Source: Acutalibacteraceae bacterium | GTDB taxonomy: Bacteria; Bacillota; Clostridia; Oscillospirales; Acutalibacteraceae | DNA: 64,000 bases | Reading direction: 5' to 3' | Assembly (NCBI GenBank): GCA_045651865.1 | Contig: JAZRTC010000021.1 | Location: forward strand, 2,065-66,064 | In this document: positions 2,891-50,063 of the stretch, piece after piece | Layout: every line of letters starts with the position of its first letter | How positions within the stretch are numbered: position 1 is the stretch's first letter | Program-made: the position numbers and the translations under genes | The notes under the pieces: generated by a model | Database searches by the model: none | Told to the model about the DNA's origin: nothing | What the model saw: the letters and a program-made list of their open reading frames with translations, nothing else

Positions 2891-2921
2891 AATCTCTTCG
2901 GTCCTTTCTGTCGGTTTGTAA

Positions 2922-4103: not shown

Positions 4104-4107
4104 TCTC

Positions 4108-4368: not shown

Positions 4369-4476
4369 AGGCAACACCTCTTTGCAAATGTATGTGACGA
4401 CCCGAGGAATAATGCCAACGGACAAGGCGTATATATGTGGTGCGGCGACCCAAACCATCTGAGGAGGTGTGACCCG

Positions 4477-27270: not shown

Positions 27271-27280
27271 TAGTGATACC

Positions 27281-27646: not shown

Positions 27647-27650
27647 AGTG

Positions 27651-28151: not shown

Positions 28152-28168
28152 TTCTTATCTCCTATATA

Positions 28169-28603
28169 TCACAATATCTTTCTAAAACAAATAATACGGT
28201 TAGCTTCTTCAAAGCCAACGTTCAAATGGAATTGCAGACTGTCGGTGTTGAGGAATTCGCAATCGCTGGCAAATTCCGCACAGCCTTGCTCCTTTGCCCA
28301 TGTCTCACAAGCGGAAAGCAATTGCTTGGCGTAACCGTTTTTGCGATAAGGCGGATCCACATAAACACCTTCTAAATATCCGACGGGACTGGTGCTTGTC
28401 CCTTCGACATAATCGTGTCGTAGTCCACATTGTGCAAAGCCGATGGTGTAATCATCTGCCGATAACAAAAATACCGCTACATCTTGCTTTTGGAGTGTTT
28501 CCTCAAAATCAGCAGTCATTTCCGCTACAGTATGATGCGGCCACAATTTGGCGGCAAGTGCCGCTACAAGCGGTGCATCCTCTAAAGTTGCCTTGTGGAT
28601 CAT
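28169..28603 (-). CDS. aac(6'): Aminoglycoside 6'-N-acetyltransferase, AAC(6')-I-like
   Basis: IGFAQCGLRHDYVEGTSTSPVGYLEGVYVDPPYRKNGYAKQL...GCAEFASDCEFLN..S..FH..VGFEE..RIICFRK closely follows the pattern I recall for AAC(6')-Iy/Ib-type enzymes. Confidence 0.7.
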   Translation of the reverse strand: MIHKATLEDAPLVAALAAKLWPHHTVAEMTADFEETLQKQDVAVFLLSADDYTIGFAQCGLRHDYVEGTSTSPVGYLEGVYVDPPYRKNGYAKQLLSACETWAKEQGCAEFASDCEFLNTDSLQFHLNVGFEEANRIICFRKIL

Positions 28604-28606
28604 AGT

Positions 28607-29158
28607 TCAGCACTCCTTTATCCGTGCTATAATCGTTTCTGCCGCCTCTTCGAGTCCGTGCAAGGAATCGATCACGATATCCGCATTTGCCTTGGTTGGT
28701 TCAACATATTGCTCGTGACGATAACGCACCAGATCGACATACACATCGATGACGTCATTGGCAGAAAGCCCCCATGAGAGATTGCGCTTGATGCGACGGG
28801 CAAACCGCACATCGGCAGGGCAATCGACAAAAATGCGTATGTCCGCTTCGCAACATACCGCGGCTTCGTCAAGCACCAAAAGTCCTTCGACGATTACAAT
28901 GTCGTGTTCCGCTTTTGCCGTCGCGATCGCCTCGTGCATTCGCACAAGATTGAACGACATGGGTGCATTGTAGTCGCGATAGGTTTTGCCGTTCGCTGTG
29001 GTGACAAGCGGCAGATCGGCTTCGGGTTTATAGAACGAGTCCATGGCAATCACCACCATGCGATGATCCGCTGATAACCGCTCAGCAAGGAGTGCCGCCA
29101 GTGTGCTTTTGCCACTCGCACTGCCACCGGCAATCAATATAGTTCGCATAATGCTCAC
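28607..29158 (-). CDS. Uridine kinase-like P-loop kinase
   Basis: ILIAGGSASGKSTLA and VIAMDSFYK. Confidence 0.65.
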   Translation of the reverse strand: MSIMRTILIAGGSASGKSTLAALLAERLSADHRMVVIAMDSFYKPEADLPLVTTANGKTYRDYNAPMSFNLVRMHEAIATAKAEHDIVIVEGLLVLDEAAVCCEADIRIFVDCPADVRFARRIKRNLSWGLSANDVIDVYVDLVRYRHEQYVEPTKANADIVIDSLHGLEEAAETIIARIKEC

Positions 29159-31438: not shown

Positions 31439-33124
31439 TTATGCGGTTTTTTTCGGGTGGATAATATCCTTATTAAGCTCGATATATTCGAGAGCTTCCT
31501 TGTAAGCATCCTTGAATTTGAACACAATCTCAATATCGCCGCCTTCGTGGACATAGATCACATCCACAAGCTCCGTCAGGAGCGGGCGGGTGAGACGATC
31601 GACATTGCCGCGTCGCTTGAAATGCGCGACAAAATCGTTTTCCTCCGAGAAGCCACATAAAAAATCCGCAATGGACTTTTCAAGCGAGGAGATGTGCTTG
31701 TCATGTTCTTCGAGTCTTACGGACAATTCGGCTTTAAGCCGCGTATATTCCTCTTTGGTGATGTCGCCGTTCTTCCAGTCGGGGTACAGTTCTGTCATCA
31801 GCCGCATCGTTTTCTCACGGGCTTGCCGCCTAGTGCGAAGCGCCGACTCCAGATGTGACGACTGGGTGCGCCGCTGATCGTTTTGCCGAAGCTGTGCCAG
31901 TACCTCATCAAACTCGATCGCCACGGCAATCAGATTCTGAATGGTTTTCAGCACCGCCGTTTCCAATTTGTCGATGCGAATGGTGTGGTTGGTGCAGGCA
32001 GTCGTGCTCATTTTGCGTCGGGTGGCACAGCGATAGTAATGATAGGTGCCGTAATCGTGGGTGTTGGTTTTCTTGTTCATACCGCGTCCGCAGTCGGCAC
32101 ACCGCACCAGCCCCGAAAACAAATCGACTTGCTTTGTCTTCGGTGAGCGGCGGATGCCGCTGTTTAAGAGCGCCTGTACTTTCGCAAAATCCTCCCGCGA
32201 GATGATGGGCTCGTGCGTGTTTTCGACGATGATCCAATCCTCTTTCGGCATATCCTTGATCTGCTTGATTTTATACGAAATTTTTTCCCGCTTGCCTTGC
32301 ACCATATCCCCGCAGTACATTTGATTTTCCAGAATGCGGCGGATGGAACGGTCGCTCCACAGCGCCTTGCCGTCAGGGTTGCTCGGCTGACGGTATTTCT
32401 GTCCCTGTAGCGCTTTGTAGACGGACGGGCAGGGGATACCGTTGCCGTTGAGACTTTTTGCGATGGCGATGATCGCCTTACCGCCGAGGTATTCCTCGAA
32501 GATGCGTCGCACAATGGGCGCCGCACCCTCGTCAATAATCAGCTTGTGATGATCGTTCGGATCCTTCAGATACCCATAGGAGGCATGCGAGCCGATAAAT
32601 AATCCTTGTTGGCGATTGAGATTAAGCGTGCCGCGAATATTCACGGATGTTGTCGCAGAGATACTCTCGTTGATGACATTTGTCACACCCAGCATAATGC
32701 AGTTGGTCATTGCATTGCCGTTTTGCGACATGCTGTCGTGATTATTGTTTATGGCTATAAAGCGCACGCCGTGTCGCGGAAAGAAATCGTCAATATATTG
32801 TCCTGCCAGCGAGGCGTTTCTGCCGAAGCGGGACAAATCTTTCACGATGACACAGTTGATGATCCCACATCGGATATCCTCAATCATGCGTTCAAACGAT
32901 GCGCGCACGAAGTTCGTGCCCGACCAGCCGTCATCGATGTAAAAATCGACGATCTCCATATCGGGATGATCTTTCACATAAGCTTTGATGATCTCGCGCT
33001 GACTCGCGACCGAGTCGGATTCTGCCTTATCGCCATCCTCTTTTGATAAGCGAATGTAAGCGGCCGCATGCCATTTCACTTCCACAGGCTCACTCGGCAG
33101 AAAGTCGGTATATTTACTTTTCAT
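31439..33124 (-). mobile_element. Large serine recombinase (resolvase domain, recombinase domain, DUF4368-like C-terminus)
   Basis: AAYIRLSKEDGDKAESDSVASQREII (catalytic Ser region), the Zn-ribbon-like CADCGRGM...YYRCATRR, a coiled coil, and a C-terminal LLTELVDVIYVHEGGDIEIVFKF. GGAGG RBS at M10. Confidence 0.85.
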
Positions 33125-33212
33125 AGTGTGTACCTCCGTAAACGGCGGCACACAAATCCTTCGAATTCATCTTAACATAACCACCGCCTTTCTGTCGAGT
33201 GGTAAATTTTTG

Positions 33213-34525: not shown

Positions 34526-35590
34526 TCGCCTTTACAGGTGCGCCAATTGGAATTGGAGCAACGACCGTGACGAAGGGCATATGTATGGGTGGTTCAGGTG
34601 GGATGGTAGTACACGCGATAGACATCTTCGGTCACTTCGATGGGAGTTCGGTCGATGAGAACAATGTTGTTCATAAATCAGTACCACCTAAGGTTCAACA
34701 AGGTGTATGGGTGGATGTGTCAGCGGAGCAGCTCGCTCGGCTGACGATGTTTAATACTGCATGGGACTCACCTTCTTTCTGGACAAAAAAGACCCGCTGA
34801 CAGCCATCGCGTGCGACTTACGCAATGACTCTCAGTGGCCTTTTTGTTTGTGTATTCAATTTGAGGATGGGACGAATGTCGCATAGATGCTGCACTTAAA
34901 TGGCGAGAATGTACCATTTAAGTAATAGATTAGTTAATGCAGCATCAAGATAATATCCTCATAATATATTATAAAGAAAAATAAATTTCATGTCGCAAGT
35001 AGAGTAGAAAAATTATCAAGGGGATGCAATCCCAGCCGCTTTACATAATTATTTCACCGTCAGGAGTACATCATATTTACATAAATTCGATTTTGGTTTA
35101 TGCGTTTGATGGGGCGTGAGTGTATGCGTGGCTTACATCACGCACAGCATCGCTACGCGAATGATGAAAAGAAAATGACTTTGACATATACCCGTAAAAA
35201 ACAAAAAGCCGCTCTGTTTTCAACCGAAAACAGTTCTGCTTTGTCTCGATTTAAGCATTTTTGCTACAAGAGAGGGATGTTTTGCAAACAGAAGGGTGGA
35301 GGAAAAAGTACATACTTACGGGACAAAAAGGACGATTTTAGTTTATTACTAAAGTGGTTTATAAGAGGATATAGGGATGATTCAAGTGTACCTCCTAGAT
35401 TGTTTTCAACAGGATATGTTCTTGTTTTCAATGTGTTGTTGAATTGTTTTCATCGATGTCTTCGATAGATTTCGATGTAGGTGAAAAAGAAACTGTGAAT
35501 AATTGTTGATGCTAAAAAGATGCTGGAGATGAACTGGATATACAAAGGAATCGGCAGATTATGTCTTCTATTGTAAATATTATGATGTTC

Positions 35591-35619
35591 TTGTTTTTCG
35601 TGAAAGAAAAATGTATAAT
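35591..35619 (+). promoter_or_regulatory. Sigma-70-type promoter of the TIR operon
   Basis: TTGTTT, 17-nt spacer, TATAAT. It lies 41 nt upstream of the ATG at 35660. Confidence 0.45.
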
Positions 35620-35659
35620 ATATATCAATAGTACAGTATGGAGTGGAGGTAAAGTGTTA

Positions 35660-37228
35660 ATGAAAGAGAAAAATATATTTATATCATATAAAAATGATGG
35701 TGAAGGTAGTAATTTTGCCGCAAGAATATGTTCGGATTTAGAGAGAATGGGACATAATGTGTATTTTAATCCTAATGAGCAACGCGCAGGGAATTTTCCT
35801 GATAGATTAAAAAATGCGGTTGAAGCATGTAAGGATTTCTTGTTAATAGTAACCCAATCATGCCTCGACCAGTTAATCAAGCATGATAAAATTGATTGGG
35901 TAAGAGAGGAATTACTTACTGCATATAGAAACGACAAAAATATAATTCCTCTTCTTATGCCAGGAGTTTCTATGCCTAAGGATAAGGAAGATATGCCTGA
36001 AGATTTAAGGTTTTTGCCGGATACGGATGCAGTAAGCATATTTGAACCATATGACAAGTCTCCATTTGAAGTTATTCTAAAATGGATGAAATCTATTCCT
36101 TCTAATGGTGAATTGTATAGAACGACATACCAAAGTAACCCTGATTATAGTATCGAAAAAGATTTTGAAGATGCGCAAAAACGGGCCAAAAGTGGAGATT
36201 ACGAAGCGATGTATGAGATTGCCACTTTTTATATGTATGGATTTGGAGCACCTAGAGCAAGTGAAGCAAGTTTTTGGTATCGTGAAATAGTGAAGTGTGA
36301 TAATGTGCAATTAAGATCATTAGCATTAAACCGTTTGGCAGGAATGTATTTTTCGGGGGAGCTTCCTGGAGAATCCCAATCGTTTGAAAAAGCTTTTGAA
36401 TTGAGGGAAGAAGCGGCAAAATATGATAAAAGTGCAGCAATGTTAAATGCGGCAATGAGGCGTATTGGATCAGGATGCAAGTTTGATTATCAATCGATAG
36501 ATCAGGGCTTTAAATCTCTAACTGTTGCGGATAGTATTGCGATAAAAGAGCAGGCGGAATTCTATGTAGCTTATGGAAAATTTCAAGATGCAATTGATTT
36601 ATTGAAAAAAATACAGGGAAAGATGCCTGCTGCAGCGTATCAGCTAGGAATGTTATATAAATTAGGTGTTCAAACACAGCCGCCAATGCCGGATTGTTAT
36701 AGGGCGGAAAGTTGCTTTCGGCGAGCGGTCAACAAGGGACATGTATTGGCTGCATATGAATTAGGAATGCTTTACTACAATCCTCCGCTGGGTGATTTTG
36801 AAAAGGATTTTGAACAAGCTGTGCAGTATTTTAAAATTGCTGCAGATGCGGGAATTCCTGAAGCACAATATAAACTTGGTTGGATGTATCGATTTGGACT
36901 TGGATGTGAAATCAATTATGAAAAAAGTATAAAATACGAACTGATGGCAGCCAATCAAGGTCATATAGGTGGTTATGGACAGCTTGCATATTTGTATCAA
37001 ATTGAAGGGTTTATCAATTATCAAAAAGCATTTAAATACGCAAAATCAGCAGCAGATGCTGGTCATGCGCACGGAGCCTTTCTATGTGGGAATTTTTTGT
37101 TTTTTGGAAGAGGATGTGAAGCGAATGAAACTGAAGCATTACGGTATTATCATTACGCGTATCAACACGGTTCTTATGAAGCAAAAATTATGATAGATAA
37201 GATCGAACGGAGGCGAAATAATGGGTAA
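35660..37228 (+). CDS. TIR domain - Sel1-like repeat protein (paralogue 1)
   Basis: GGAGTGGAGG RBS. N-terminal TIR (IFISYKNDGEG...DFLLIVTQ...IDWVREELLTAY). The C-terminal roughly 350 aa are Sel1 repeats (AVQYFKIAADAGIPEAQYKLGWMYRFGLGCEINYEKSIKY...). Confidence 0.8.
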   Translation: MKEKNIFISYKNDGEGSNFAARICSDLERMGHNVYFNPNEQRAGNFPDRLKNAVEACKDFLLIVTQSCLDQLIKHDKIDWVREELLTAYRNDKNIIPLLMPGVSMPKDKEDMPEDLRFLPDTDAVSIFEPYDKSPFEVILKWMKSIPSNGELYRTTYQSNPDYSIEKDFEDAQKRAKSGDYEAMYEIATFYMYGFGAPRASEASFWYREIVKCDNVQLRSLALNRLAGMYFSGELPGESQSFEKAFELREEAAKYDKSAAMLNAAMRRIGSGCKFDYQSIDQGFKSLTVADSIAIKEQAEFYVAYGKFQDAIDLLKKIQGKMPAAAYQLGMLYKLGVQTQPPMPDCYRAESCFRRAVNKGHVLAAYELGMLYYNPPLGDFEKDFEQAVQYFKIAADAGIPEAQYKLGWMYRFGLGCEINYEKSIKYELMAANQGHIGGYGQLAYLYQIEGFINYQKAFKYAKSAADAGHAHGAFLCGNFLFFGRGCEANETEALRYYHYAYQHGSYEAKIMIDKIERRRNNG

Positions 37229-38834
37229 GGATATTTTTATATCATATAAAAACGACGGTGAAGGAAACAACTTCGCTGCAAGAATATGTTCTGATTTAGA
37301 AAAGCTGGGATACGAAGTATATTACAATCCGAATGAACAGCATGCAGGTAGTTTCCCCGAAAGATTAAAAAATGCAGTGGAATCCTGCAAAGATTTTTTG
37401 CTAATTGTCACACAGCCTTGTCTTGAACAGCTAATGAGACATGACAAAATCGATTGGGTTAGAGAAGAACTACTTACAGCATATAGAAGTAAAAAAAACA
37501 TAATACCTCTTATTATGCCAGGAGTTTCTATACCTAAAGACAAAGATGATATGCCTGAAGATCTAAGTTTCTTACCAGACAAAGACGCTGTATGTGTATT
37601 TGAACCTTATGATAAATCTCCGTTTGAGAATATATTAAGTTGGATGAAGTCATTACCGGTTAACATGGAAAAATACAAAGATATTTTTCAGAGTAACAGC
37701 GACTATGATGTCAACGATGATTTTGCCACCACATTAAAGCGTGCTGAGTCTGGTGATGAAAAGGCTATGTATGAAATCGCCAATATGTATTTCTATGGAT
37801 ATACCAATGGAGACGGACAATCCAAAAGAGATTTTTCAAAAGCATATTCGTGGTTTACAAGATTATCTAATAGTGATAGTCCTTATGGCGTTTTTGCTAC
37901 CTCTATGTTAGGAAAAATGCACTATCGTGGTGTTGTTCCAAAAGAGAAGCAATCCTTTGTAAAATCATTTGAGTGTCACAAGAAAGCGGCACAAGGTGGT
38001 AGTGAATATTCAAAACAACAGTATGCATTTATGTTGTCAATGGGTATGGGCTGTGACTTTGATTATGATGCCGCAGAGCAACAGTACCTATCTGCAATGG
38101 AACACGGTGATAATGTTTCAATAAGTGGACTGGCGAAGTTCTACATTCAGTATGGCGAATTCAAAAAAGCAGAAAATTTATATAAAAACATTGTTGATAC
38201 ATACCCTATGGCAGCCTATGAATTAGGGTGTCTATATATGAAGGGATTATTGAGCGAAGATAAGAAACCCGATTGTTTTAAGGCGGCTTTCTATTTTCAA
38301 CACGCAATTAACACAGGCAAAGGTGATATGGATGCGCGTTATCAATTGGGTCTTCTGTATTTCAGAGGTACCAACGGTTTTATAAATGATTATAAAATTG
38401 CACAAGAAAACTTTGAGATTGCAGCAGATAGCGGTCATGTTGCCTCGGCGTACATGATTGGTTATATGTATGAACACGGACATGTTGAGTTGAATTTGGA
38501 GAAAGCTATACATTATCATGCGTTGGCGGCGGATCATGGTCATGTGTTGTCACCAACTCATTTAGCAATTCTCTATCAGTTGCCTGAACATCAAAACTAT
38601 CATAAGGCGATAAGGTATGCAAAACTTGCTGCGAGCTATGGCGAAAAAGAGGGTGAATTTGTATACGGTAATCTTCTTTTCTTTGGCAGAGGATGCAAAC
38701 CGGATAATAACGAAGCTTATAAAATGTACAAGCGCGCTCTTGAACACGGGTGTGATCAAGCCGCATTTATGATTGAGCGAATTGAATCAAGACAATTGGC
38801 CGATGATATGGGAAATCACAAAATTGGTTATTGA
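37221..38834 (+). CDS. TIR domain - Sel1-like repeat protein (paralogue 2)
   Basis: Overlaps paralogue 1 by 8 nt. Its TIR region is about three-quarters identical to paralogue 1 by eye, and it has Sel1 repeats (AIHYHALAADHGHVLSPTHLAILY...). Confidence 0.8.
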   Translation: MGKDIFISYKNDGEGNNFAARICSDLEKLGYEVYYNPNEQHAGSFPERLKNAVESCKDFLLIVTQPCLEQLMRHDKIDWVREELLTAYRSKKNIIPLIMPGVSIPKDKDDMPEDLSFLPDKDAVCVFEPYDKSPFENILSWMKSLPVNMEKYKDIFQSNSDYDVNDDFATTLKRAESGDEKAMYEIANMYFYGYTNGDGQSKRDFSKAYSWFTRLSNSDSPYGVFATSMLGKMHYRGVVPKEKQSFVKSFECHKKAAQGGSEYSKQQYAFMLSMGMGCDFDYDAAEQQYLSAMEHGDNVSISGLAKFYIQYGEFKKAENLYKNIVDTYPMAAYELGCLYMKGLLSEDKKPDCFKAAFYFQHAINTGKGDMDARYQLGLLYFRGTNGFINDYKIAQENFEIAADSGHVASAYMIGYMYEHGHVELNLEKAIHYHALAADHGHVLSPTHLAILYQLPEHQNYHKAIRYAKLAASYGEKEGEFVYGNLLFFGRGCKPDNNEAYKMYKRALEHGCDQAAFMIERIESRQLADDMGNHKIGY

Positions 38835-39273: not shown

Positions 39274-40437
39274 ATGAGTAATGATAATCAGGAACTACTC
39301 GAACTTTTTAAAAAATACCGCACTGGCGAAATATCTGAAAAAGATTTAACAGAAGAACAGTGCTTGCTTATCGGACAGATGTACGATAAACAGATACGCG
39401 AATTGAAAGCGAGTAATCGAAGCCGTCATTCTGCCGTTGAAGCCTGGGTTGAAACGCAAAGTGAAAACGATGAAACATTAATTGAAATCAAAAATATGTT
39501 GTCATCACTCGCCAAAACAACAGCAGGAAAAACTATAGATAAGTTCTATTTGAAGGAAAACAAGGCGGGTGTAGGTCTTGATTTGTATGATGGTGTAAAT
39601 TATCTCGCGACATATTTATCTTATGAGGACTGCATATGCGACATGGCGTTTCACTGGTCAATTGTTGATTTTGATACGATAGTTAATATGTTTATGCGTA
39701 AAAATATTTCAGTACAGCCGCCATACAAATACAGAGCAGTTGTTTCGGAGTTGTATTGTATAACAGAATCGGTACATAGATATGTGTTTTATGGGAACTC
39801 TTTGACTGCACTCTTAGAAAGAATAGAAACTGTAGAAAAAAGAAGCATTTCGTTTCCCGATAAGTTTATTTTTGGCGTACAAGGGGTTGCCATTTATTTA
39901 TTTGATGAAAATGAGTTAAAATACCAGTTTTGGCTCGGCGGAAGTGCGTTTCATAGCATAGCAGATGTAATAAAGGCAGCTCATGATAAAAATAAGTTTA
40001 TACCCAATGCAATTTTGCAAGAGTTTTCGGAGCTAAATAATGTAGATGTTTTTATTTCTCATAAAAGTCAAGATTTCTTACAAGCGAAAAAAGTGTACGA
40101 TCATTTGATTTCTCAAGGAATAGCAACATTTCTTTCTGAAATGTCCTTGCCGGCTATATCAAATGCTGATTATTCTGCCGAGATCGATAAAGCATTAGAT
40201 GCAACAAAAAACATAATTATCATTGCGACAAATCGAGAAAATGTTCTTTCTGGGTGGGTTCAATATGAGTGGACAGCTTTTGCCAACGAAAAACGCTCTG
40301 GAAGAAAGGACGGCAATATAATTACGCTCATTGATGAAAACATGCCTATTACAGAATTGCCAATTTTGTTAAGGCAATTCGAAGTAATACCAATGAATGA
40401 GTTTGAATCTGTCAAAAAATTTTTAAAATTATCCTAA
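39274..40437 (+). CDS. Unknown N-terminal domain fused to a C-terminal TIR domain
   Basis: AAAGGAG RBS. C-terminal TIR (VDVFISHKSQDF...NIIIIATNRENVLSGWVQYEWTAF). The N-terminal roughly 255 aa have no motif I recognise. Confidence 0.75.
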   Translation: MSNDNQELLELFKKYRTGEISEKDLTEEQCLLIGQMYDKQIRELKASNRSRHSAVEAWVETQSENDETLIEIKNMLSSLAKTTAGKTIDKFYLKENKAGVGLDLYDGVNYLATYLSYEDCICDMAFHWSIVDFDTIVNMFMRKNISVQPPYKYRAVVSELYCITESVHRYVFYGNSLTALLERIETVEKRSISFPDKFIFGVQGVAIYLFDENELKYQFWLGGSAFHSIADVIKAAHDKNKFIPNAILQEFSELNNVDVFISHKSQDFLQAKKVYDHLISQGIATFLSEMSLPAISNADYSAEIDKALDATKNIIIIATNRENVLSGWVQYEWTAFANEKRSGRKDGNIITLIDENMPITELPILLRQFEVIPMNEFESVKKFLKLS

Positions 40438-41573: not shown

Positions 41574-41621
41574 ATTAATGTGGCGGGACAGATATTCTGT
41601 CCCGCCAGAAAGGAATACATT

Positions 41622-42362
41622 ATGAAACGAATAGGAGCTTTAATATTACTATGTTGCATATTGGTGTGTGGTGTTTGCGGATGCACTAACTCTGAAGCGA
41701 ACAAGACCGCACTTGATTATGTTGATCTTTGCGATTATAAGTCCTTAGAAGTTCCCGCAGATGAATACATGGTATCAGATACAGATCTTTCTACTGCAAT
41801 TCAAATGCACATGAGTTCTTTGAATATTGAAGCTTCTGAACTTTCTGACAGCATTGCAGTTGAATATTTCAACTGTAAAAATGCAAACGATGTCAGAGAA
41901 ATGATTAAAAAAGAAATCATTGAAAATCGCTTTTATGAAGCAGCGCGTGATATGATTCTTGAATCCTCTTTAATTATCGGCTTTCCGGAAGAAAGTAAAA
42001 CATATGTAAACAATATGGTTTCTGCGCAAAAGGCATTCGCTGAAGCCGAAGGGATTAGTTTAAGTGAATATCTTGATAGTTATTACGAAATGACTGAGGA
42101 AGAATTCCGAGAAGCTGCTCTTTGTGGATACGGCGACATAATGATTCTCAAAGCAATCGCTGAAAAAGAAAAATACGAAATCAACTCAGAAGAGCGCCGT
42201 TCTCTAATTGAATCGACTGCAGAGCATATAGGAATGTCTACGGAGGAAACTCTTAACATATATGGCGAAGAGTATTTTGATTGTCTTTTATATGAAGAAT
42301 TTTTGAAAGAACTAATTCTTGACATTTATTCTGATGAAGTTCTCGCAAAAGTCAAAAGTTGA
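41622..42362 (+). CDS. Lipoprotein with trigger-factor C-terminal/SurA-like chaperone region
   Basis: Start at M15 and a lipobox (VCGC). The helical region resembles the trigger-factor C-domain (EIIENRFYEAARDMILES...ILKAIAEKEKYEI). Confidence 0.5.
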   Translation: MKRIGALILLCCILVCGVCGCTNSEANKTALDYVDLCDYKSLEVPADEYMVSDTDLSTAIQMHMSSLNIEASELSDSIAVEYFNCKNANDVREMIKKEIIENRFYEAARDMILESSLIIGFPEESKTYVNNMVSAQKAFAEAEGISLSEYLDSYYEMTEEEFREAALCGYGDIMILKAIAEKEKYEINSEERRSLIESTAEHIGMSTEETLNIYGEEYFDCLLYEEFLKELILDIYSDEVLAKVKS

Positions 42363-42507
42363 GAGTAATATTTAATTTGAAATTGTGATACATGATTTAT
42401 AAAGAGGCCATCTTAGCACAATGCATTAGCACAATGCTTAGATGACCTCTTTTTTATACTTATAATGTCGTTATATCGCACTTTTTTGTGCAATGCCGCA
42501 ATTAATA

Positions 42508-42586: not shown

Positions 42587-42802
42587 ATGGCTGTATCTTA
42601 CAACAAATTATGGCACCTGCTACTTGACAAAAAAATGAAGAAGAAAGATTTCCAAGAAGCAGCAAAGTTAACGCAACATGCTATGAGAAAACTGAGCAAA
42701 GATGAAGCTGTAACTACTGATACACTTGCGAAAATATGCAGGTATCTAGATTGCTCGGTTGACGATATTATGGAAGTGTTACCAGAGGAAAAAGAAAAAT
42801 AA
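42587..42802 (+). CDS. XRE/Cro-type HTH transcriptional regulator (71 aa)
   Basis: Start at M16 after GAAAGGAAAC. MAVSYNKLWHLLLDKKMKKKDFQEAAKLTQHAMRKLSKDEAVTTDTLAKICRYLDCSVDDIMEV. Confidence 0.75.
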   Translation: MAVSYNKLWHLLLDKKMKKKDFQEAAKLTQHAMRKLSKDEAVTTDTLAKICRYLDCSVDDIMEVLPEEKEK

Positions 42803-42837: not shown

Positions 42838-45408
42838 ATGGGTGGAATTACACAAGCCATTAAAATAGCGAAAAGAGATTTCAGCAAAAAACTATATTTT
42901 AAAGAAGATATAGAAAAATTGATTTTTGACCTAGAAAATTGCATTAAAGACAAAAAAACAGATACTGAACAAACTGTGAGAATGAAAATCCTCAGAATGT
43001 TTGCTTCTTATGGCATTGAACTCGAAAAGAACTTAACTCCAGAACAATATCGCGAGCAATTGGAGCTGCATTACATTCAACCTATAAAAAATTTTCCTGA
43101 AATGTGTTGGAACGAAATGATGAAGTTCAACTTGGCGTACAAGACACCTAAGGAATACATGGAACGACTTGTTAATGAATTGGTATCTCCAGAATACAAT
43201 TTGCCTGATTCTCCAATTCGTTTAAAAATTCTTAAGCAAATTCTCGGTAAATTAGACTGTTTAAGAGGTACGAGTTTTCAAAGCAAAAAGTTAATCAATA
43301 TTATCGAAAATGATTACGATGGTATTGTTAGCAATATTGGCGATGAAATATTTAAAAATTATTTGACACCAATTCAGCCTAGCAAATATTTACGAGTGTT
43401 GCTTGATGTGTATGGTAACATTCTTTACCGCAATGACGAAAAAGATGATGATTTAACATTACTAGTTTCCAAGCATAATAATTCAGTTAAAGAGCAAACC
43501 GCAAGACAATTATTGCAAATTATCCATCCTAATAACCCACAAGCAAAAATAGACACTAATGGTAAAGCGATTGGATCTTTTAGCATAGAAGATTTTGATA
43601 GATCTTTGGTTGAACAAATTAAAAGTTACTTAGATGGAGTTAGAATCGCCTTTAAGGAAAAATATGATGAAGAACTGAAAAACATCGAACTTCTTGAGCA
43701 AGAAAAACATATCCGGCAGTTTCCAATAGTGATGCAATTTGTTGTCGAACACAAGTTATGTGAACATCTCAAGACAAAACGATTTGTTGCTCTTGTGAAA
43801 TCACATATGGGAATCGATGTAGATGAAGATAATGTGGATTGTAGTTTGATAGAAAGTATAATGAATTACTCGCTTTCCGCAGACTCAAAAGAAAAATTCA
43901 ATAATTATTTAATCAAACAAATCGCAAAGCTATTTGAAAAGGCAGACGATAAATCGAAAGAAGAATATAGTTCATTTGTATCAGCATTAAAAGAAATCGA
44001 AATTAGTTGTAATCGAGTTCAGTACAAAGCGATAGAGTTCTTTATTCAAAAAAAGGGTCTGCATGAGCAATTACTAACGAGTGAAATTAAAGACATAGTA
44101 GAGAGTCAACTAGAAAAAAAGCAAGAGGTTGAACTTTCGAATCATGAATTGATGGATCATCTGGCATTGGTAGCAAATGAGAATCCTGATGTTTTGAAAA
44201 AAGTTATCCCATTGTTAATTAAAAGAATAAAAGAGTTTAGGACGGAAACAAATCAAAGTTTTGCTAAAGGTTTAGATAATGTAAGCGATAGAGCGTCTAT
44301 CCCAGAGATCTTGAAAATTTCAAATGATTTAGCCGAAGGTAAATATAAGAGAGGTTCTGAAATGAAAGAAATCTTATATTTGTTTGCGTTCGCCTTTGAT
44401 ATGTCTATAAGCTTTGAAAATAATGAGACAAATACTTTAAGAGATGTCAAAAAAAATCTGTTCGAAGATTTTTATTGCGACAATATAATTCGTTATATCA
44501 ACGATTACCAGTTGAATGGTGTTTATGAAGAGCCATCAGGTATAACGATACAGTTTAAGAATTTTGTAGAAATTATTTATTTGTATTGGTTAAATAAAGA
44601 CAGCAGAACATATTCTCCAGCAGAAAAATATCTTTCTGCGAATGCAATGATCAAGAAAATAGTTTCTAAGATTAAATCTGCCGAGAAGGAAATAGACAAA
44701 TCAACTTCCCAATTAGGGAAAAAATATTTTGAAGCAAAAATGCTTACTGATAAAAAAGCCTTAGGTACCGAAGTCTATAGAAACTTTATAAGAACAGATA
44801 GTCAGGACGACGGCAATAAGCATTTGAAAATTGACAACTACTTGGGGCTATCAGAAGAAGAGTTTTTAGAAATTATTCTTCAGAACTATGATATTGATAC
44901 GACAATAAAATATACAACATCTGCTGCATTTGAAAATGAAAACTATCAAGAATCCGCTGAGTCTAATTTTGGGAAGTTGATAGATGAACTCAAAATGGAA
45001 ACAGATGGCACTGGATTTATTCCAAATTGTTATTCATTAGAGTTTTATGAAACTGTTTTTGATGAACTATTTGCCAAGAAAGAATATGACGTCAAATTAC
45101 ACACCCAACTTTCTACTTTGGTAAAAAAACTTAATGAACAAATGAAGCAGGTTTTAAGTGAGGCAGAGGTTGAAGGTTATAATCTCTTTACTCGAACAAG
45201 ATTTATGTACTTGTTTTATAATCACTTTGTACTGAGTCGTATCGGCGAGAAATACAACGAGACTTTTGATGATTTTTATGATGAGTATTGTGAGTCATTA
45301 AATAGGAAATTAGAAGATTGCTCATATCAACTTTTTTCTGAGAAGAACCTTATCGATATGATGTTGCTTTACTCTGCATTTATAACATTAAGGACAGAAG
45401 ACAATTAA
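42838..45408 (+). CDS. Large (856 aa) K/E-rich helical protein, no recognisable domain
   Basis: AAAGAGGT RBS and an uninterrupted ORF. I found no P-loop, nuclease or TM motif. Confidence 0.7.
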   Translation: MGGITQAIKIAKRDFSKKLYFKEDIEKLIFDLENCIKDKKTDTEQTVRMKILRMFASYGIELEKNLTPEQYREQLELHYIQPIKNFPEMCWNEMMKFNLAYKTPKEYMERLVNELVSPEYNLPDSPIRLKILKQILGKLDCLRGTSFQSKKLINIIENDYDGIVSNIGDEIFKNYLTPIQPSKYLRVLLDVYGNILYRNDEKDDDLTLLVSKHNNSVKEQTARQLLQIIHPNNPQAKIDTNGKAIGSFSIEDFDRSLVEQIKSYLDGVRIAFKEKYDEELKNIELLEQEKHIRQFPIVMQFVVEHKLCEHLKTKRFVALVKSHMGIDVDEDNVDCSLIESIMNYSLSADSKEKFNNYLIKQIAKLFEKADDKSKEEYSSFVSALKEIEISCNRVQYKAIEFFIQKKGLHEQLLTSEIKDIVESQLEKKQEVELSNHELMDHLALVANENPDVLKKVIPLLIKRIKEFRTETNQSFAKGLDNVSDRASIPEILKISNDLAEGKYKRGSEMKEILYLFAFAFDMSISFENNETNTLRDVKKNLFEDFYCDNIIRYINDYQLNGVYEEPSGITIQFKNFVEIIYLYWLNKDSRTYSPAEKYLSANAMIKKIVSKIKSAEKEIDKSTSQLGKKYFEAKMLTDKKALGTEVYRNFIRTDSQDDGNKHLKIDNYLGLSEEEFLEIILQNYDIDTTIKYTTSAAFENENYQESAESNFGKLIDELKMETDGTGFIPNCYSLEFYETVFDELFAKKEYDVKLHTQLSTLVKKLNEQMKQVLSEAEVEGYNLFTRTRFMYLFYNHFVLSRIGEKYNETFDDFYDEYCESLNRKLEDCSYQLFSEKNLIDMMLLYSAFITLRTEDN

Positions 45409-45415
45409 CCCCCCT

Positions 45416-45459
45416 CTTGTTTGCATTTTTATAAATGATATTATTGTTATGCAAACAAG
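45416..45459 (+). other. Intergenic hairpin between the 856-aa and 1401-aa genes
   Basis: 11-bp perfect stem CTTGTTTGCAT / ATGCAAACAAG with a 22-nt AT loop. It follows a C6 tract and has no T-run. Confidence 0.5.
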
Positions 45460-45494
45460 AACTGTCGTAAAAATGAAAGGAGAATTATTCAACG

Positions 45495-48400
45495 ATGGAT
45501 TCCAGAGCTTTTATGAGAAAAGGCGAAAAAATAACACTATGTGAAGAAATTTCAGGAAATAAAAAAACATTTTCAATTATATCTAAAGACGGGGCAGGTT
45601 CATCATCTGTATCCTATATTGCAACTTGTGGAAGAAAAACGGGGCGACTGAAGGAGTTTTATCCTTGCGATCACAACAATGGCGAATTATTCGCAATTAT
45701 CCGTAAAAAAGACAACCAACTTTTTTGTTCCAATCAAAACGAAGAGGCAACCAAAACTTACGCTGCTATGATGGATGAATACATAGAATCCTATCATATT
45801 CTTGAAGATGCAAAAAAAGAAGCTGAAAAAGGAAACAATTCGTTTAGTACATTTATTCCAAGTTTTGAGATTTTCAGAGGTTGTGACGAAAATGGCAATG
45901 CAGGTGGAAGTGCGTATATTTGGACTATTGATAATACCGGAGATTTTGAAACGTTCGATAAGTATTTAGAAAAGGTCCACAAACACCCTTCTCGCAACCC
46001 AGCCAAGGCTCTTTTTGTAATTCTTAAAACTTTATATAACTTAACAGAGTGCGTAAAAACACTGCATACAGCCGGATTGATTCATAGTGACATTAAACCT
46101 GAAAACTTTGGATTTTCAATCAGAGATGGACGTCATTTGACTGAACAGGTTCAACTTTTCGATGTAAATTCCATTTATTCTGTTTATACAAACTTCCCCA
46201 CCTTTACAGGGACTGCAGGATTTTGTGCACCGGAAGTATTCAAAGGGAAAATCACCAATCAGTCTGATTTGTACTCAATTGGTGCAGTATTGTTTAATGC
46301 AGTTGCATTAGACGATGATATTAAAGATAGTTTGTATTCAGATGAATTTTACGCAAATATTGATGAAATCGTTGCGAATTCTAAATTGCTTAACGCAAGT
46401 CCTATTACAGCAAGTGTAAGATTCCAGGCTAAAATATCCGGAATTCTAAAAAAGTGCTTAGCTAAAGAACTGAGAAAAAGAATTGACAATTGTGACGAAC
46501 TCAAAAAAGATTTGCAGAGTGCATGTGCGTTGCTTATTCCGGCCCAATATAACGATATTCTTGATCTTGGAAGCGAGCTAAAAATAATTGATAAAGAATT
46601 GGAACAATTTAATGAAGCTGATTCGACATTTGCTTTCCAAAGTTTGATTTTTAACCATCCTCTTTACGAAAACGCAGACGATACCATCAAAATTCTTATT
46701 GCGGGCTTTGGTGTATATGGACAGCAGTTCCTGGATATTTGTTTGCAGGCAGGACAAATCAAGGGAAAAAAATTAGAGATTGCAGTTATAACACAAGATA
46801 AGGTGGCTTACAAAAAAGAATATTTGGATCAACGACCTGCCCTTATCGATTTCTTCGAGATAGATGGTGAAGGAGACACAAGTAGTACTAATTATGGAAA
46901 AATCACCTTTATCACGCCAGAAGAAGTTTTTGATGATCCGGAAACATCTGCAAGGTTCGCAAACGGATTTAGTAGAGGCACCAGCAGAGCTGATTTGCAG
47001 TACAACAAGGCACTCGCTCAAGAATTAATGCTTACTAAATGTGAATCAAGCTATGTATTCGTAGCTTTAGGCGAAGATCAATTGAACTTATCAGTAGCTA
47101 AGGCTTGTGCTAAAGTGGTATCTAGCTTTGCTGAATTAAAATGTACGGTAGCATGTGTTTGTAATGACAATAAAAATCACAAAGGAATTTTAACAGTTAA
47201 TGTAACAGCTAAGGCAAGTGAAAACAAAAGCTACGAGGAGATTGAGCGAATGGCATTTAATGCCCACCTCTCTTGGAATAGCCCGTTAAAGTTAAACATC
47301 AATCTGAGAAAAGCTAAGCGCGAGTTTTCGGATAAATATAATCACGATGCATCAGTTGCGTGTGTTCTGGCAATAAAAAATTCTCTATATTCGTGCGGAA
47401 TTGCATTAGATGATTTGTCGGAAGAGTCGATCGCAAAAGCAGCGAGTGAATATAGTGGTTTTATCAAAAGCAACAAGGATATCTTTGCCGAATTAGTTTA
47501 TGTAGAGCACAAACGGTGGGTTGTTGATAAAATCACAAACGGTTGGACATTTAGAAGCAATCTTACCGACTGTTTGTATGGTCCTATCAACGATAAGAAG
47601 AAAAAGCAGCATCCTTGTATTGTGAAAAGCAAAGTTGATTTCAATTTGGAAAAGTATTATAAGAATGCCTCAACTGGTAAGTGGTATAAGTCCAAGTGGA
47701 ATGAACGTTGTGATGATGATGGATTACTAGATGAATTAGACACAATATCTATTAAACTTCATAGGTTGTTCTTTGAAGCCGCAAAGGAAGTAAAAAGCAC
47801 CTTTTCTCTTAATGGAGAAGAAGTCAATAGAATTCAGTGGTTAATCAATGAGCATAAAGATTCTGTAATTGCCTTTAATGAGTGGATGCTGTGTTTAAAA
47901 CGTATTTGGGATATGGATGAAGCTCAGGCAAAATTCTATGATGGATATAGAGATGCCTTTTTGGAAACGATCTCCTCACTTTCAAAGCCAGAGCGAGAAG
48001 ATGTCATTAGGTATGTGAAAATTATTGATTCCAAAGTCACTCCAATTATTTTCGCATATAGAATGAGAGATTATAAGGCATCCGATAAAGATTTAATAAA
48101 TGCAATTCCGTTTATACTCACCAATCGAGAAAACAGAAGAGTATTTATTCCTTTGATGAATGGTGACAATACAGAGAGATTCAATAATGTAGCCTCAGCG
48201 ACATTGATTAATCCGGATACGATTACATATGGTGTTTACCTGAGAACTCATGATAATACAAAAGAATTTCTTGAAATAACAAATCATATTCTATCTTATA
48301 TGGATAAAAAGGATATCAAATCCAAATTAAAGTTTGCTTTGATTTATAGTGATAACGATAAGAAGATTAAGCAATCTATTGCTGAATTGATTGAGAAGCT

Positions 48401-49700
48401 AAGAAAGATGGATCCGCGAATCAAACAAATTTTTAACCTTCCTGTGTTAAATGAGGCCGATATCGCAACTACACTGTCCTCTCAAATAGTCGCTGATGCA
48501 TATGAAAATAATTCAGCTTACTTGTCTGCATTATTGGTTGGAGCTGGATTTTTCGCAAATAAGCCCACGTATAGTTTTGACTCATTTGATAAAAAGTTTG
48601 TTGTCTCAAATGGTTGCGAATGGCTCAACTATATAAGAAGTGGTCAATTTATCACCATTCCGGATATGTTATCTTTTAAGAGCTCTACAGGTGTCATGGA
48701 AGCATTACCTGAGTATGCTGAATATAAAGAACTCTGGAAGCTTTATAAAGGTACTAGCTACGCTTGGAAAGATATGTGCAAAGTACTTGAGAAGTTTGCA
48801 GACAGTAATGATTTGATTTCTAGTTTTAATATTCAAACCGACTTCACTAATGCAAAGACATTGGAATTTGTAATTCCAAATGAGCTGAGAGATAGTTATA
48901 ACCACATAATTTCTTATCTTAGGGATATTGCTCTTGCAATCGGCGAATCGTCACGCGTGGAGTATAAATCAATCGAATCGTGCAAAGTAACGATTGTTGT
49001 TGGTCAAAACAACATTGATGCAGCCAAGAAACTGTTTGCAAATCCTTATATGCTTATGAACCGTAGAAACATATCGATACGAACAAAGCCTAAAAAGGCG
49101 GAGATATTACTGAATAGTCTCGTTGTTAATGAGCTGAAGATGGATGATTATCCTGAATATTCAGATAAAAAGAAAAAAATTGGAGAGATTTTCCTAACAC
49201 TTCAAAAAGAAGGATATATCTACAATTTAAGAAATGTGGATAATCAAGTATTTTCTTTTGTTTATTCCACGAGACAAGCAAAGCAGTTAATGACAAGTGC
49301 AGGTAGAATTTTAGAAATATATGTTTATCACAAACTCCAAGAGTCTGGCTTTGATGATGTGGTAAGTGGGTATGAAATCAATTGGGGAGATACAGATGTA
49401 AAATCAGAATTTGACTGCATTGTTACCTCTGGTTTCAAATGTGCAATGATAGAATGTAAAGCACAGGATAAAATTTCCCAAGATTACTACTACAAGCATT
49501 CTTGCTTAGCAAAGCAATTTGGCATTAATGCAATACCTGTCTTAATTGCGGATACTCATGAAAGAGAGGATTGGGATAATAGTACAAACGAAATGCAGCG
49601 CGAACGCGGAAAAATGATGGGCGTTGTTACAGTATACGATCGTGACGATATCAGTAATATTGATATGACGCTTAGACGAATATTAAACGGCAAATACTAA
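45495..49700 (+). CDS. 1401-aa fusion: Hanks-type Ser/Thr kinase, Rossmann-like region, RyR-like region, unknown middle, C-terminal PD-(D/E)xK (DUF1887/Card1-like) nuclease
   Basis: Kinase: GRLKEF Lys, catalytic loop HSDIKPEN (res 197-204), LFDV, GTAGFCAPE, SDLYSIGAVLF. Rossmann-like: KILIAGFGVYGQQ (res ~399-412). RyR-like: VYVEHKRWVVDKITNGWTF...KKQHPCIV (res ~668-710). Nuclease: LEIYVYHKL...SEFDCIV...MIECKAQ (D1307, E1320, K1322). Confidence 0.75.
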   Translation: MDSRAFMRKGEKITLCEEISGNKKTFSIISKDGAGSSSVSYIATCGRKTGRLKEFYPCDHNNGELFAIIRKKDNQLFCSNQNEEATKTYAAMMDEYIESYHILEDAKKEAEKGNNSFSTFIPSFEIFRGCDENGNAGGSAYIWTIDNTGDFETFDKYLEKVHKHPSRNPAKALFVILKTLYNLTECVKTLHTAGLIHSDIKPENFGFSIRDGRHLTEQVQLFDVNSIYSVYTNFPTFTGTAGFCAPEVFKGKITNQSDLYSIGAVLFNAVALDDDIKDSLYSDEFYANIDEIVANSKLLNASPITASVRFQAKISGILKKCLAKELRKRIDNCDELKKDLQSACALLIPAQYNDILDLGSELKIIDKELEQFNEADSTFAFQSLIFNHPLYENADDTIKILIAGFGVYGQQFLDICLQAGQIKGKKLEIAVITQDKVAYKKEYLDQRPALIDFFEIDGEGDTSSTNYGKITFITPEEVFDDPETSARFANGFSRGTSRADLQYNKALAQELMLTKCESSYVFVALGEDQLNLSVAKACAKVVSSFAELKCTVACVCNDNKNHKGILTVNVTAKASENKSYEEIERMAFNAHLSWNSPLKLNINLRKAKREFSDKYNHDASVACVLAIKNSLYSCGIALDDLSEESIAKAASEYSGFIKSNKDIFAELVYVEHKRWVVDKITNGWTFRSNLTDCLYGPINDKKKKQHPCIVKSKVDFNLEKYYKNASTGKWYKSKWNERCDDDGLLDELDTISIKLHRLFFEAAKEVKSTFSLNGEEVNRIQWLINEHKDSVIAFNEWMLCLKRIWDMDEAQAKFYDGYRDAFLETISSLSKPEREDVIRYVKIIDSKVTPIIFAYRMRDYKASDKDLINAIPFILTNRENRRVFIPLMNGDNTERFNNVASATLINPDTITYGVYLRTHDNTKEFLEITNHILSYMDKKDIKSKLKFALIYSDNDKKIKQSIAELIEKLRKMDPRIKQIFNLPVLNEADIATTLSSQIVADAYENNSAYLSALLVGAGFFANKPTYSFDSFDKKFVVSNGCEWLNYIRSGQFITIPDMLSFKSSTGVMEALPEYAEYKELWKLYKGTSYAWKDMCKVLEKFADSNDLISSFNIQTDFTNAKTLEFVIPNELRDSYNHIISYLRDIALAIGESSRVEYKSIESCKVTIVVGQNNIDAAKKLFANPYMLMNRRNISIRTKPKKAEILLNSLVVNELKMDDYPEYSDKKKKIGEIFLTLQKEGYIYNLRNVDNQVFSFVYSTRQAKQLMTSAGRILEIYVYHKLQESGFDDVVSGYEINWGDTDVKSEFDCIVTSGFKCAMIECKAQDKISQDYYYKHSCLAKQFGINAIPVLIADTHEREDWDNSTNEMQRERGKMMGVVTVYDRDDISNIDMTLRRILNGKY

Positions 49701-49711
49701 TTCAAAACTCA

Positions 49712-49743
49712 TCCGACCATTCAATATTGTCTGGATGGTCGGA
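49712..49743 (+). other. Hairpin after the kinase-nuclease gene
   Basis: 9-bp stem TCCGACCAT / ATGGTCGGA with a weak T-run. Confidence 0.4.
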
Positions 49744-49778
49744 CGAAAACAATATATTTATTTTGAAAGGATACATGT

Positions 49779-50063
49779 ATGTATACACCAAAACCGATTG
49801 ATACAAAAAACATTGCACTTCCGGAAGAACTTCTCGCTCTGACTGAAAAAATCGCTGAGAATGTTCATGATGTATGGGCACAGGGCCGAATTTCTGAGGG
49901 TTGGACGTATGGCGAAACTAAGGATCCCGAGAAGAAAACCACACCGCTCCTTGTCCCATATGAAGAATTGGCCGACAGTGAGAAAGATTATGACCGTAAT
50001 ACTGCGTTAGAAACACTGAAGCTGATTGTTAAACTGGGTTATTCAATCAAAAAAGTAGAATAA
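49779..50063 (+). CDS. Stand-alone RyR (ryanodine-receptor repeat) domain protein
   Basis: LPEELLALTEKIAENVHDVWAQGRISEGWTYGETKDPEKKTTPLLVPYEELADSEKDYDRNTALETLKLIVKLGYSI fits the bacterial RyR-domain pattern. Confidence 0.75.
   Translation: MYTPKPIDTKNIALPEELLALTEKIAENVHDVWAQGRISEGWTYGETKDPEKKTTPLLVPYEELADSEKDYDRNTALETLKLIVKLGYSIKKVE

Follow-up and report, generated by a model that had tools for sequence, protein, structure and literature searches.

We analysed a 64-kb window (64,000 nucleotides) of contig JAZRTC010000021.1 from an Acutalibacteraceae bacterium, which carries the gene for a large multidomain protein within an operon. The gene lies at 45495..49700 on the plus strand and consists of a single ATG-started open reading frame (ORF) of 1401 amino acids (aa) with no internal stops. 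From its N-terminus, the protein is predicted to comprise a Hanks-type Ser/Thr kinase, a Rossmann-type domain, an all-helical domain carrying a motif that resembles the RyR repeat, and a C-terminal third related to the Can2/Card1 nucleases. Comparison of related gene clusters indicates that the operon has a conserved order: a helix-turn-helix (HTH) regulator, a helical protein of ~560-860 aa, a PP2C gene (absent here), the large protein and a 94-aa RyR protein.

A preliminary description of this DNA had proposed that kinase, Rossmann-like, RyR-like and nuclease parts share one polypeptide. This is borne out by the uninterrupted ORF, in whose translation all the quoted motifs were found in place. 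The motifs located are GAGSSSVSY (33-41), K53 within GRLKEF, HSDIKPEN (197-204), LFDVNS (221-226), GTAGFCAPE (239-247), KILIAGFGVYG (399-409), EHKRW (671-675), NGW (682-684), QHPCIV (705-710), RRVFIPLM...GVY (881-915), SEFDCIV (1304-1310) and IECKAQ (1319-1324). The RyR gene downstream, the conserved partner gene upstream, the loss of PP2C at this locus and the recurrence of TIR genes nearby go beyond that description.

Among 5.8 billion proteins searched, 67 relatives were found, mostly 1376-1504 aa long and aligning end-to-end at 28-96% identity. In a scan of GTDB species representatives (one genome per species) we identified 49 family loci, 40 of them with full-length ORFs, in metagenome-assembled genomes of Clostridia, Lachnospiraceae, Oscillospiraceae, Ruminococcus, Selenomonadaceae, Synergistaceae and Sphaerochaetaceae from gut and rumen. 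Locus counts given below as x/49 refer to these species-level loci, with neighbourhoods taken to 10 kb, and residue counts refer to the species-level family sequences (n=41). Exhaustive HMMER searches with the middle module (residues 390-760) yielded 516 clusters at 50% identity with E<=1e-3, and 190 at E<=1e-30. The family is large and so far confined to uncultured gut and rumen bacteria; residues 345-1401 gave no match in plasmid and phage collections (tblastn), and their structure model gave nothing significant against viral structures in Foldseek (best E=0.028). The full-length homologues, the full-length GTDB ORFs and the middle-module clusters together exclude a fusion produced by sequencing or assembly, an objection raised at the outset, since full-length copies occur in dozens of independent assemblies. 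We found no published description of the kinase/RyR-like/Can2 architecture in the literature searched, a body that did not extend to the CARF classification of Makarova et al. (2020), and PADLOC-DB 2.0 knows the separate domains only, not the whole architecture.

The kinase domain occupies residues 1-345 (45495..46529, plus strand). It contains a Gly-rich loop (33-41), K53, the catalytic loop H197-S-D199-I-K201-P-E-N204 and A245-P-E247, with F-D223-V in place of DFG and its Asp kept; ~50 additional residues separate K53 from the catalytic loop. Pfam Pkinase (PF00069) matched it at E=1.9e-15, with 57.4 bits against a cut-off of 31.7, and only profile positions 99-253 were aligned; the homologue P0023 aligns to the same profile at 9-247. 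A family kinase profile retrieved PknB-type kinases from the PDB (E~1e-13), and the best-scoring PADLOC models were those of PD-T4-6 (E=1.3e-17). D199, N204 and D223 are each present in 41/41 sequences, K53 is Lys in 37/41 and Arg or His in the others, and the complete K53/D199/N204/D223 set is intact in 37/41. The kinase had been proposed from HSDIKPEN, FDV and GTAGFCAPE; with Pkinase above its cut-off and the catalytic residues intact, the domain reads as a bona fide Hanks kinase. It does not have the look of a pseudokinase either, the Gly-rich loop, K53, D199, K201, N204, D223 and APE all being present. In the relatives P0022 and P0026 the kinase motifs are lost beside an intact nuclease, and in P0059 and P0061 the nuclease motifs are lost beside a retained kinase, which indicates that each activity can be dispensable.

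The remainder of the protein was examined in AlphaFold models of residues 345-1401 (59 sequences; mean predicted local distance difference test score, pLDDT, 90.4; predicted template-modelling score, pTM, 0.84) and, separately, of residues 572-878 (pLDDT 93.2, pTM 0.87). The Rossmann-type alpha/beta domain (residues 397-570; 46683..47204, plus strand) forms a beta-alpha-beta sheet in the model (pLDDT ~90), with the motif G404-x-G406-x-x-G409 and an acidic residue, D435, after strand 2. G404 is present in 41/41 sequences and G406 in 39/41. The Rossmann-like assignment made earlier thus stands as far as the beta-alpha-beta pattern and the invariant GxG are concerned, while its matches to known families stay sub-threshold: Pfam Sacchrp_dh_NADP (saccharopine-dehydrogenase NADP-binding) reached at best E=2.3e-4 in homologues (P0127), and Foldseek returned weak dehydrogenase matches (E 0.2-0.5). 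A family profile of the domain gave no meaningful match to PDB sequences. Its interpretation as a second CARF domain, forming a Can1-like pseudo-dimer, was rejected at the sequence level (hhalign probability 6%).

An all-helical domain follows (residues 580-876; 47232..48122, plus strand). Within it lies the RyR-repeat-like motif (residues ~659-723; 47469..47663, plus strand), which reads EH672xxW675 ... G683-W684 ... H706-P-C-I-V. On this segment Pfam RyR (PF02026) remained below threshold (E=0.031, 15 bits against 27.4) and covered profile positions 27-61 only. The profile of the 94-aa RyR protein family aligned to it with 93% probability (hhalign, E=3e-7, 56 columns, positions 19-74 of 94), and the family profile matched Repeat12 of RyR3/RyR1 in the PDB (E=0.004-0.006) over ~50 residues, aligned to 'IHELW..GW..RQHPCLV'. 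H672 (40/41), W675 (41/41) and H706 (40/41) are, together with G683, D746 and D749, the best-conserved positions of the whole protein (40-41/41). Phage RyR-domain proteins bind or hydrolyse TIR-made 2'/3'-cyclic ADP-ribose (cADPR) via an HxxW pair, a second His and an Asp, and are dimers through helices alpha1 and alpha4; H672, W675 and H706 align with the H/W/H ligand contacts of two of them, RyDEP and RyR Tad (PMC13232231; 10.64898/2026.06.04.730250). Of the RyR-like claim in the preliminary description, then, a repeat motif of ~50-60 residues holds, while the rest is a larger helical domain that, having no PDB fold match, cannot be filed as an RyR fold. With both the Pfam threshold and the fold test failed, the internal segment should be called an RyR-repeat-like motif. 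A second RyR half-repeat downstream of H706 was unsupported by hhalign. A profile of residues 580-877 also matched, unexpectedly, an 'outer surface protein' of 385 aa (PDB 1x7f, E=5e-4); the aligned part (profile 152-256, around LDELDRMSVELHR) lies C-terminal to the RyR motif.

The C-terminal third, by its model, is a structural member of the Can2/Card1 family. Foldseek returned nine significant PDB matches for residues ~880-1401, and all of them belong to this family: VC1899 (1xmx, E=4e-10), Cdn1 with cyclic tetra-adenylate (cA4), Can2 from three organisms and Card1, with E-values ranging up to 2.8e-7. The alignments extend over 507-580 columns against targets of 342-436 residues, with target-normalised template-modelling (TM) scores of 0.46-0.65, and this whole-chain span means that the CARF and the nuclease halves both match. 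The CARF-like Rossmannoid domain (residues 882-1020; 48138..48554, plus strand) is defined by these matches and by its predicted secondary structure. It begins with the 'RRVFIPLM...' stretch, which forms beta1-alpha1-beta2 of the alpha/beta fold in the model; the whole-chain matches and the pLDDT 90.4 model agree with the earlier suggestion that this stretch belongs to a CARF-like sensor. The alpha1-beta2 region is in register with Can2 7bdv in a non-significant hidden Markov model alignment. At the sequence level the CARF half gave no significant match in PADLOC or in a PDB profile search, the nuclease half alone being significant. The best-conserved CARF parts are the loops after beta1 and beta5, yet their conservation is moderate (N898 34/41, N892 29/41, N1006 21/41).

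Between the two halves lies a mixed alpha/beta insert of ~150-190 residues (residues ~1025-1215; 48567..49139, plus strand), which exceeds the length of the Can2/Card1 linker. Finally, the PD-(D/E)xK nuclease domain (residues ~1220-1397; 49152..49685, plus strand) contains E1274, D1307 and E1320-C-K1322. PADLOC CARF_PDDEXK (PDLC01880) matched residues 1226-1398 with E=7.7e-13, Pfam Card1_endonuc is above cut-off in homologues, and a nuclease profile aligned its D..ECK with that of Can2 7bdv (E=0.0013). All these searches, together with Foldseek, agree with the Card1/Can2-type C-terminus that had been recognised in the ECK core. D1307/E1320/K1322 are intact in 32/41 sequences.

Comparison of the relatives revealed that the family is modular. 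Short relatives (926 aa; P0064-67) end in a true RyR domain where the longer forms have the Can2 unit, and this fusion in cis implies joint action of the N-terminal module with the free-standing RyR protein. One of the short forms, P0066, is encoded at L080:1-7662 in an island that also holds a TIR-beta-propeller protein, a ThiF/JAB (E1-like) protein, an AAA ATPase and a second, stand-alone kinase. A longer relative, P0209 (1869 aa), has a TIR domain at the position of the Can2 unit; its operon consists of partner, PP2C and kinase-...-TIR genes, and an RyR gene lies nearby. The kinase is absent from ~15% of the top 150 relatives, P0121 and P0126 among them; P0121 is complete and begins with the Rossmann domain. 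The orthologue comparison called for earlier thus gives a constant core of Rossmann domain, RyR-like domain and effector and a variable kinase. The kinase-less forms suggest that this core acts with the RyR protein, the kinase, PP2C and partner being an add-on layer, and the swappable C-terminal module fits the pattern of a sensor-effector immune protein.

The first gene of the operon encodes a small HTH regulator of the XRE/HTH_26 type (42587..42802, plus strand). Its mechanical ORF starts at a TTG at 42542, and homologues favour the ATG at 42587. Its translation is nearly identical to a 70-aa gene (Pfam HTH_26) heading the operons at L081-L083 and L088-L090, and a copy with 89% identity is present at L044. 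Upstream of it we located a terminator-like 18-bp hairpin (42401-42452), 3' of the preceding gene, and a TGnTATAAT box; a general scan for promoter and terminator consensus sequences was uninformative, finding fewer promoter-like sites than in shuffled sequences. In the loop region of the hairpin (42412-42441), close to the box and the HTH gene on their upstream side, lies a direct repeat of 13 nt (CTTAGCACAATG x2.4) that could be an operator for the regulator.

The second gene encodes the partner protein (42838..45408, plus strand), 856 aa and helix-rich by composition. The C-terminal ~360 residues of the partner are encoded upstream of the kinase-nuclease gene and on the same strand at 44/49 loci (24-40% identity). 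It had no Pfam, NCBIfam, PADLOC or PDB sequence match, and its homologue search returned 17 close relatives only. The partner accompanies the kinase-bearing forms at L081, L084, L085, L086 and L091 and is absent from the kinase-less operon at L088. Between the partner and the large gene at most related loci (27/49) lies a PP2C gene (~236 aa; PP2C_2, E~1e-19), which overlaps the start of the kinase gene by 4 nt in 9/9 such loci with mapped ORFs. No PP2C match was found anywhere in the 64-kb window; the subclade to which it belongs (L084-L087, 54-87% identical) has no PP2C gene and a partner that is ~200-300 residues longer. Here the two genes are separated by an 87-nt spacer (45409..45494) with a perfect 12-bp inverted repeat (45415-45426 / 45449-45460, 22-nt loop), which may be a deletion scar or a regulatory hairpin.

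The stand-alone RyR-domain protein (RyR94) is encoded by the last gene of the operon (49779..50063, plus strand; 94 aa). It matches Pfam RyR over its full length (1-91/91; E=6.7e-37, 126.1 bits against 27.4). Homologues are encoded within 10 kb at 23 related loci, immediately downstream at 16 and elsewhere at 7, and H30, W33 and D72 are invariant in all 23. They are 50-94% identical to RyR94, compared with 28-37% for the large protein and ~25% for the partner at the same loci, a difference that fits a constrained small ligand-binding module beside fast-evolving sensor and effector genes. RyR94 homologues were also found in 231 phage records. Directly 3' of the large gene's stop codon, ahead of the RyR gene, lies an imperfect 15-bp hairpin (49709-49746), which might act as a partial terminator and set the RyR:effector ratio. 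At two loci of the window's subclade (L084:11329-11820 and L085:11368-11853), the large gene is followed directly not by an RyR gene but by one for a conserved protein of 161-163 aa, 60% identical between the two, of an unrecognised family and with no match to the RyR profile.

Three TIR genes lie 2-7 kb upstream, on the same strand. The first encodes a TIR-Sel1 repeat protein of 555 aa (35561..37228, plus strand; Pfam TIR_2 E=1.5e-11, Sel1 E=2.5e-29), a candidate sensor or signal generator. The second (37221..38834, plus strand; 537 aa) is its paralogue, 51% identical and overlapping it by 8 nt (37221-37228), and the tandem pair looks like a recent duplication of a sensor gene. The third (39274..40437, plus strand; 387 aa) carries a C-terminal TIR domain (Pfam TIR_2 E=9.1e-11) and aligns from end to end, at 65% identity, with the product of one of the five TIR genes at L088. 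A local search identified TIR-type ORFs at 17/49 family loci as opposed to 0/30 loci of unrelated kinases, a control that is taxonomically unmatched; 10/10 of the ORFs checked were confirmed by Pfam. Among them are TIR-NACHT-TPR, TIR-LRR, TIR-ankyrin, TIR-WD40 and TIR-vWA sensors. Besides the three genes of the window, five TIR genes each are found at L088 and L047 and six at L038. TIR genes abut the operon on the same strand at L009, L014, L027, L035, L037, L041, L047, L084, L085 and L088; at L084 and L085, the closest annotated operons, TIR-Sel1/TPR genes follow it. In L009 an RyR-TIR fusion directly follows the large gene, and in L035 a TIR-NACHT-TPR-RyR fusion directly precedes the operon. 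The kinase-less operon at L088 has the order HTH / TIR / effector / RyR / TIR x4, with gaps of 0-140 nt.

The operon is embedded in a region of low GC content, 33-39% from ~34 to 56 kb of the window compared with ~53-57% in the first 24 kb, where ordinary Firmicute genes are found (YqfD sporulation protein, IspDF, galactokinase, PBP5-type carboxypeptidase). Just before the GC drop lies a gene for a large serine recombinase with Resolvase, Recombinase and Zn ribbon domains (31439-33148, minus strand), and the low-GC island may be an integrated element. Three related loci (L044, L081, L086) occupy the same chromosomal site, with flanks 80-98% identical to those of the window and divergent cassettes; the shared downstream flank carries DUF1292, metallophosphatase and PcrA/UvrD-tudor genes. 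Despite these shared flanks, the large protein of L044 is just 36% identical to the one described here. Differing cassettes at one chromosomal site are as expected for a defence hot spot.

Since phage RyR domains handle TIR-made cyclic ADP-ribose signals, we read the protein as a Thoeris-like, phosphorylation-tuned nuclease effector. On balance, it is probably the effector of a multigene anti-phage system of the abortive-infection type in a low-GC defence island, its nuclease being gated by a TIR-made signal and tuned by phosphorylation. The C-terminal D..ExK nuclease would be the toxic output, degrading DNA and/or RNA like Can2/Card1 and held in check in uninfected cells. A nucleotide signal would trigger its release; most likely, the TIR sensors encoded nearby make an ADP-ribose derivative that the RyR-like pocket reads, perhaps aided by the Rossmann or CARF domain. 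RyR94 would bind or destroy stray signal and so set a threshold, as ring nucleases do in type III CRISPR; host ring nucleases, with their viral copies (AcrIII-1), provide a precedent for such a buffer role. The kinase, acting with the helical partner, would contribute either a switch by phosphorylation or another input, with PP2C as its opponent in most relatives.

Several results weigh against this reading. About two thirds of the loci have no TIR gene within 10 kb, and in the window the nearest one is 2.1 kb from the operon, behind three small genes and the terminator-like hairpin. Part of the TIR association could also reflect a general tendency of defence genes to cluster, the control being taxonomically unmatched. 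As for the candidate reader, the model of the helical domain gave neither a fold match nor an RyR structure in the PDB (Foldseek, best E=1.5), and the fourth ligand residue of RyDEP, an Asp, is not alignable to the internal motif, with D746 and D749 as candidates only. RyR94 itself has a Thr where the phage proteins have their phosphate-binding (second) His. The CARF loops are just moderately conserved, and the 'GGTK'-type loop of Card1 seems to have no counterpart in the CARF-like domain, so that each of the domains named is a candidate ligand site only.

A wider proposal, which we advance tentatively as possible rather than probable, is that gut and rumen anaerobes have a new pathway of the Thoeris kind, in which RyR-repeat domains serve the cell as receptors and regulators of the ADP-ribose signals made by TIR proteins. 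Many TIR sensors with repeat domains would feed one giant effector, in which the RyR-like pocket opens the Can2-type nuclease, the kinase (with PP2C) tunes it and the host RyR protein buffers the signal. The RyR sponges and glycosidases of phages would then be a captured host off-switch, as AcrIII-1 mirrors ring nucleases, and the pocket of animal RyR Repeat12 would derive from bacterial immune signalling.

The main competing account of the same operon does without TIR signals: the partner would sense a phage component and activate the kinase, auto- or trans-phosphorylation would free the nuclease, or the kinase would poison the cell as Stk2 does, and PP2C would reset the system. The TIR genes would be bystanders, and the Rossmann, RyR-like and CARF domains would bind a housekeeping nucleotide or be structural. 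Such a switch would suit the joint travelling of partner gene, PP2C and kinase domain, which recalls the TerY-P triad, as well as the best score of the kinase domain, which is to the single-gene defence kinase PD-T4-6, the many loci where no TIR gene is seen and the fast evolution of the partner, as expected of a phage sensor. We nevertheless consider it rather unlikely, because the kinase-less forms retain the Rossmann/RyR-like/Can2 core and the RyR gene within TIR operons, the kinase is degenerate in P0022 and P0026 next to an intact nuclease, RyR-TIR fusions adjoin the operon, and the H/W/H residues of the RyR-like motif are conserved beyond the kinase lysine. An ancillary nuclease of type III CRISPR, activated by cyclic oligoadenylate via its CARF domain like Can2/Card1 and bearing extra regulatory domains, appears improbable. 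Residues ~880-1401 do match whole chains of Can2/Card1/Cdn1, cA4-bound structures included, and at L086, where the large protein is 87% identical, a cluster of Csm6 (CARF_Card1/6H), Cas1, Cas2 and an RT-AEP fusion (1-4832) ends ~2.5 kb upstream of the partner and ~5 kb upstream of the large gene. However, this is the only one of the nine distinct annotated neighbourhoods inspected that contains cas genes (1/9), neither a CRISPR array nor, among the ORFs scanned, a cas gene occurs in the window, the CARF loop residues are poorly conserved, and such a system would leave the RyR, PP2C and partner genes unaccounted for.

Alternatively, the protein could guard against phage anti-Thoeris proteins, its internal half-RyR pairing with RyR94 until a phage RyR sponge or glycosidase displaces RyR94 or binds the domain and triggers the nuclease. 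The dimerisation of phage RyR proteins via alpha1 and alpha4, the short members with a true RyR in cis, which imply an interaction between the module and RyR94, and the abundance of RyR homologues in phages would all be compatible with a guard. It is pure inference, though, and we hold it to be very improbable: the invariant residues are ligand contacts and not an interface, and the TIR fusions point to small-molecule signalling. Least credible, to the point of near dismissal, is a role in housekeeping signalling or DNA repair without any link to immunity, or an artefact of assembly. The conserved, ordinary-looking downstream flank might suggest a housekeeping role, which is countered by the position in a low-GC island where close relatives swap cassettes, by the patchy distribution across phyla and by the domain swapping within the family; the full-length copies in independent assemblies, described above, speak against an artefact.

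The TIR-gated, phosphorylation-tuned effector that we favour resembles Thoeris and type III signalling on the one hand and switches of Ser/Thr kinase (STK) and PP2C on the other, and it is a member of neither. Thoeris has several TIR sensors (ThsB) and one effector (ThsA), which reads a cADPR-type signal. The locus likewise has several diverse TIR genes round one effector with modules resembling nucleotide sensors, and the operon includes a member of the RyR family, for which binding of Thoeris signals has been demonstrated. Unlike in Thoeris, no SLOG or Macro sensor was found in Pfam, PADLOC and fold searches, and there is no SIR2 or transmembrane effector, the candidate sensor being RyR-like and the output Can2-like; the layer of kinase, PP2C and helical partner is without a Thoeris counterpart, and TIR genes occur at about a third of the loci. 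With Can2/Card1 (CARF4, DUF1887; VC1899, Cdn1; activated by cA4), the unit shares an N-terminal CARF and a C-terminal PD-(D/E)xK domain with D..ExK. It differs in being the C-terminal third of a 1401-aa protein, in the ~150-190 residues that are extra between its halves, in its weakly conserved CARF loops and in lacking a type III CRISPR context in the window and in most relatives.

The likeness to the phage proteins RyDEP and RyR Tad (2'/3'-cADPR glycosidase/sponge) extends to both RyR copies, RyR94 being a full PF02026 domain with HxxW and D, and the internal motif having H, W and H in register. In contrast to the phage proteins, the copies described here are encoded by the cell or the island, inside a defence operon; RyR94 has Thr for the phosphate-binding His, and the internal copy is partial and set within a 300-residue helical domain. 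Kinase-based defence offers a further parallel. The TerY-P triad consists of vWA, PP2C and STK components and is linked to defence (PMC11090510). As in TerY-P, PD-T4-6 and Stk2, a Hanks kinase is found here, and most relatives have next to it an antagonistic PP2C gene and, as the third component, the partner gene. The third partner is helical and without a vWA match, however, and the operon has no vWA gene; in addition, and in contrast to STK and PP2C switches, sensor and nuclease modules form one polypeptide with the kinase, and PP2C is missing from the window.

If the favoured reading is true, the protein would represent a new class of effector and bring a new sensor domain, the RyR-like one, to nucleotide-signalling immunity. 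A Can2 nuclease of the CRISPR type would have been re-used outside CRISPR, and second-messenger control and Ser/Thr phosphorylation would converge in one polypeptide. It would also give a cellular context to the RyR domain, whose demonstrated microbial roles are so far only those of phage anti-Thoeris tools (two 2026 preprints), and the origin of the nucleotide pocket in animal RyR Repeat12 would become testable. Even if the architecture alone holds, the family would show with unusual clarity how effector modules (Card1 nuclease / TIR / RyR) are exchanged on a sensor chassis that stays conserved.

The window contains further genes of interest. Between the TIR genes and the operon, a 260-aa protein is encoded (41580-42362) whose sole match is the trigger factor C-terminal domain (Pfam E=4.6e-5; NCBIfam tig E=8.3e-10); no counterpart of this chaperone-like module was found at the related loci from GTDB. 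A C-5 cytosine DNA methylase gene (12716-13783) lies in a low-GC patch (46-49%, 12-16 kb) together with a 298-aa ORF on the opposite strand (13892-14788), and the patch may be a separate restriction-modification system. Finally, positions 26962-29158 on the minus strand hold a run of the nucleotide-metabolism type, composed of a MazG-like pyrophosphohydrolase, a NUDIX hydrolase, a GNAT protein and a P-loop kinase resembling uridine kinase and zeta toxin.

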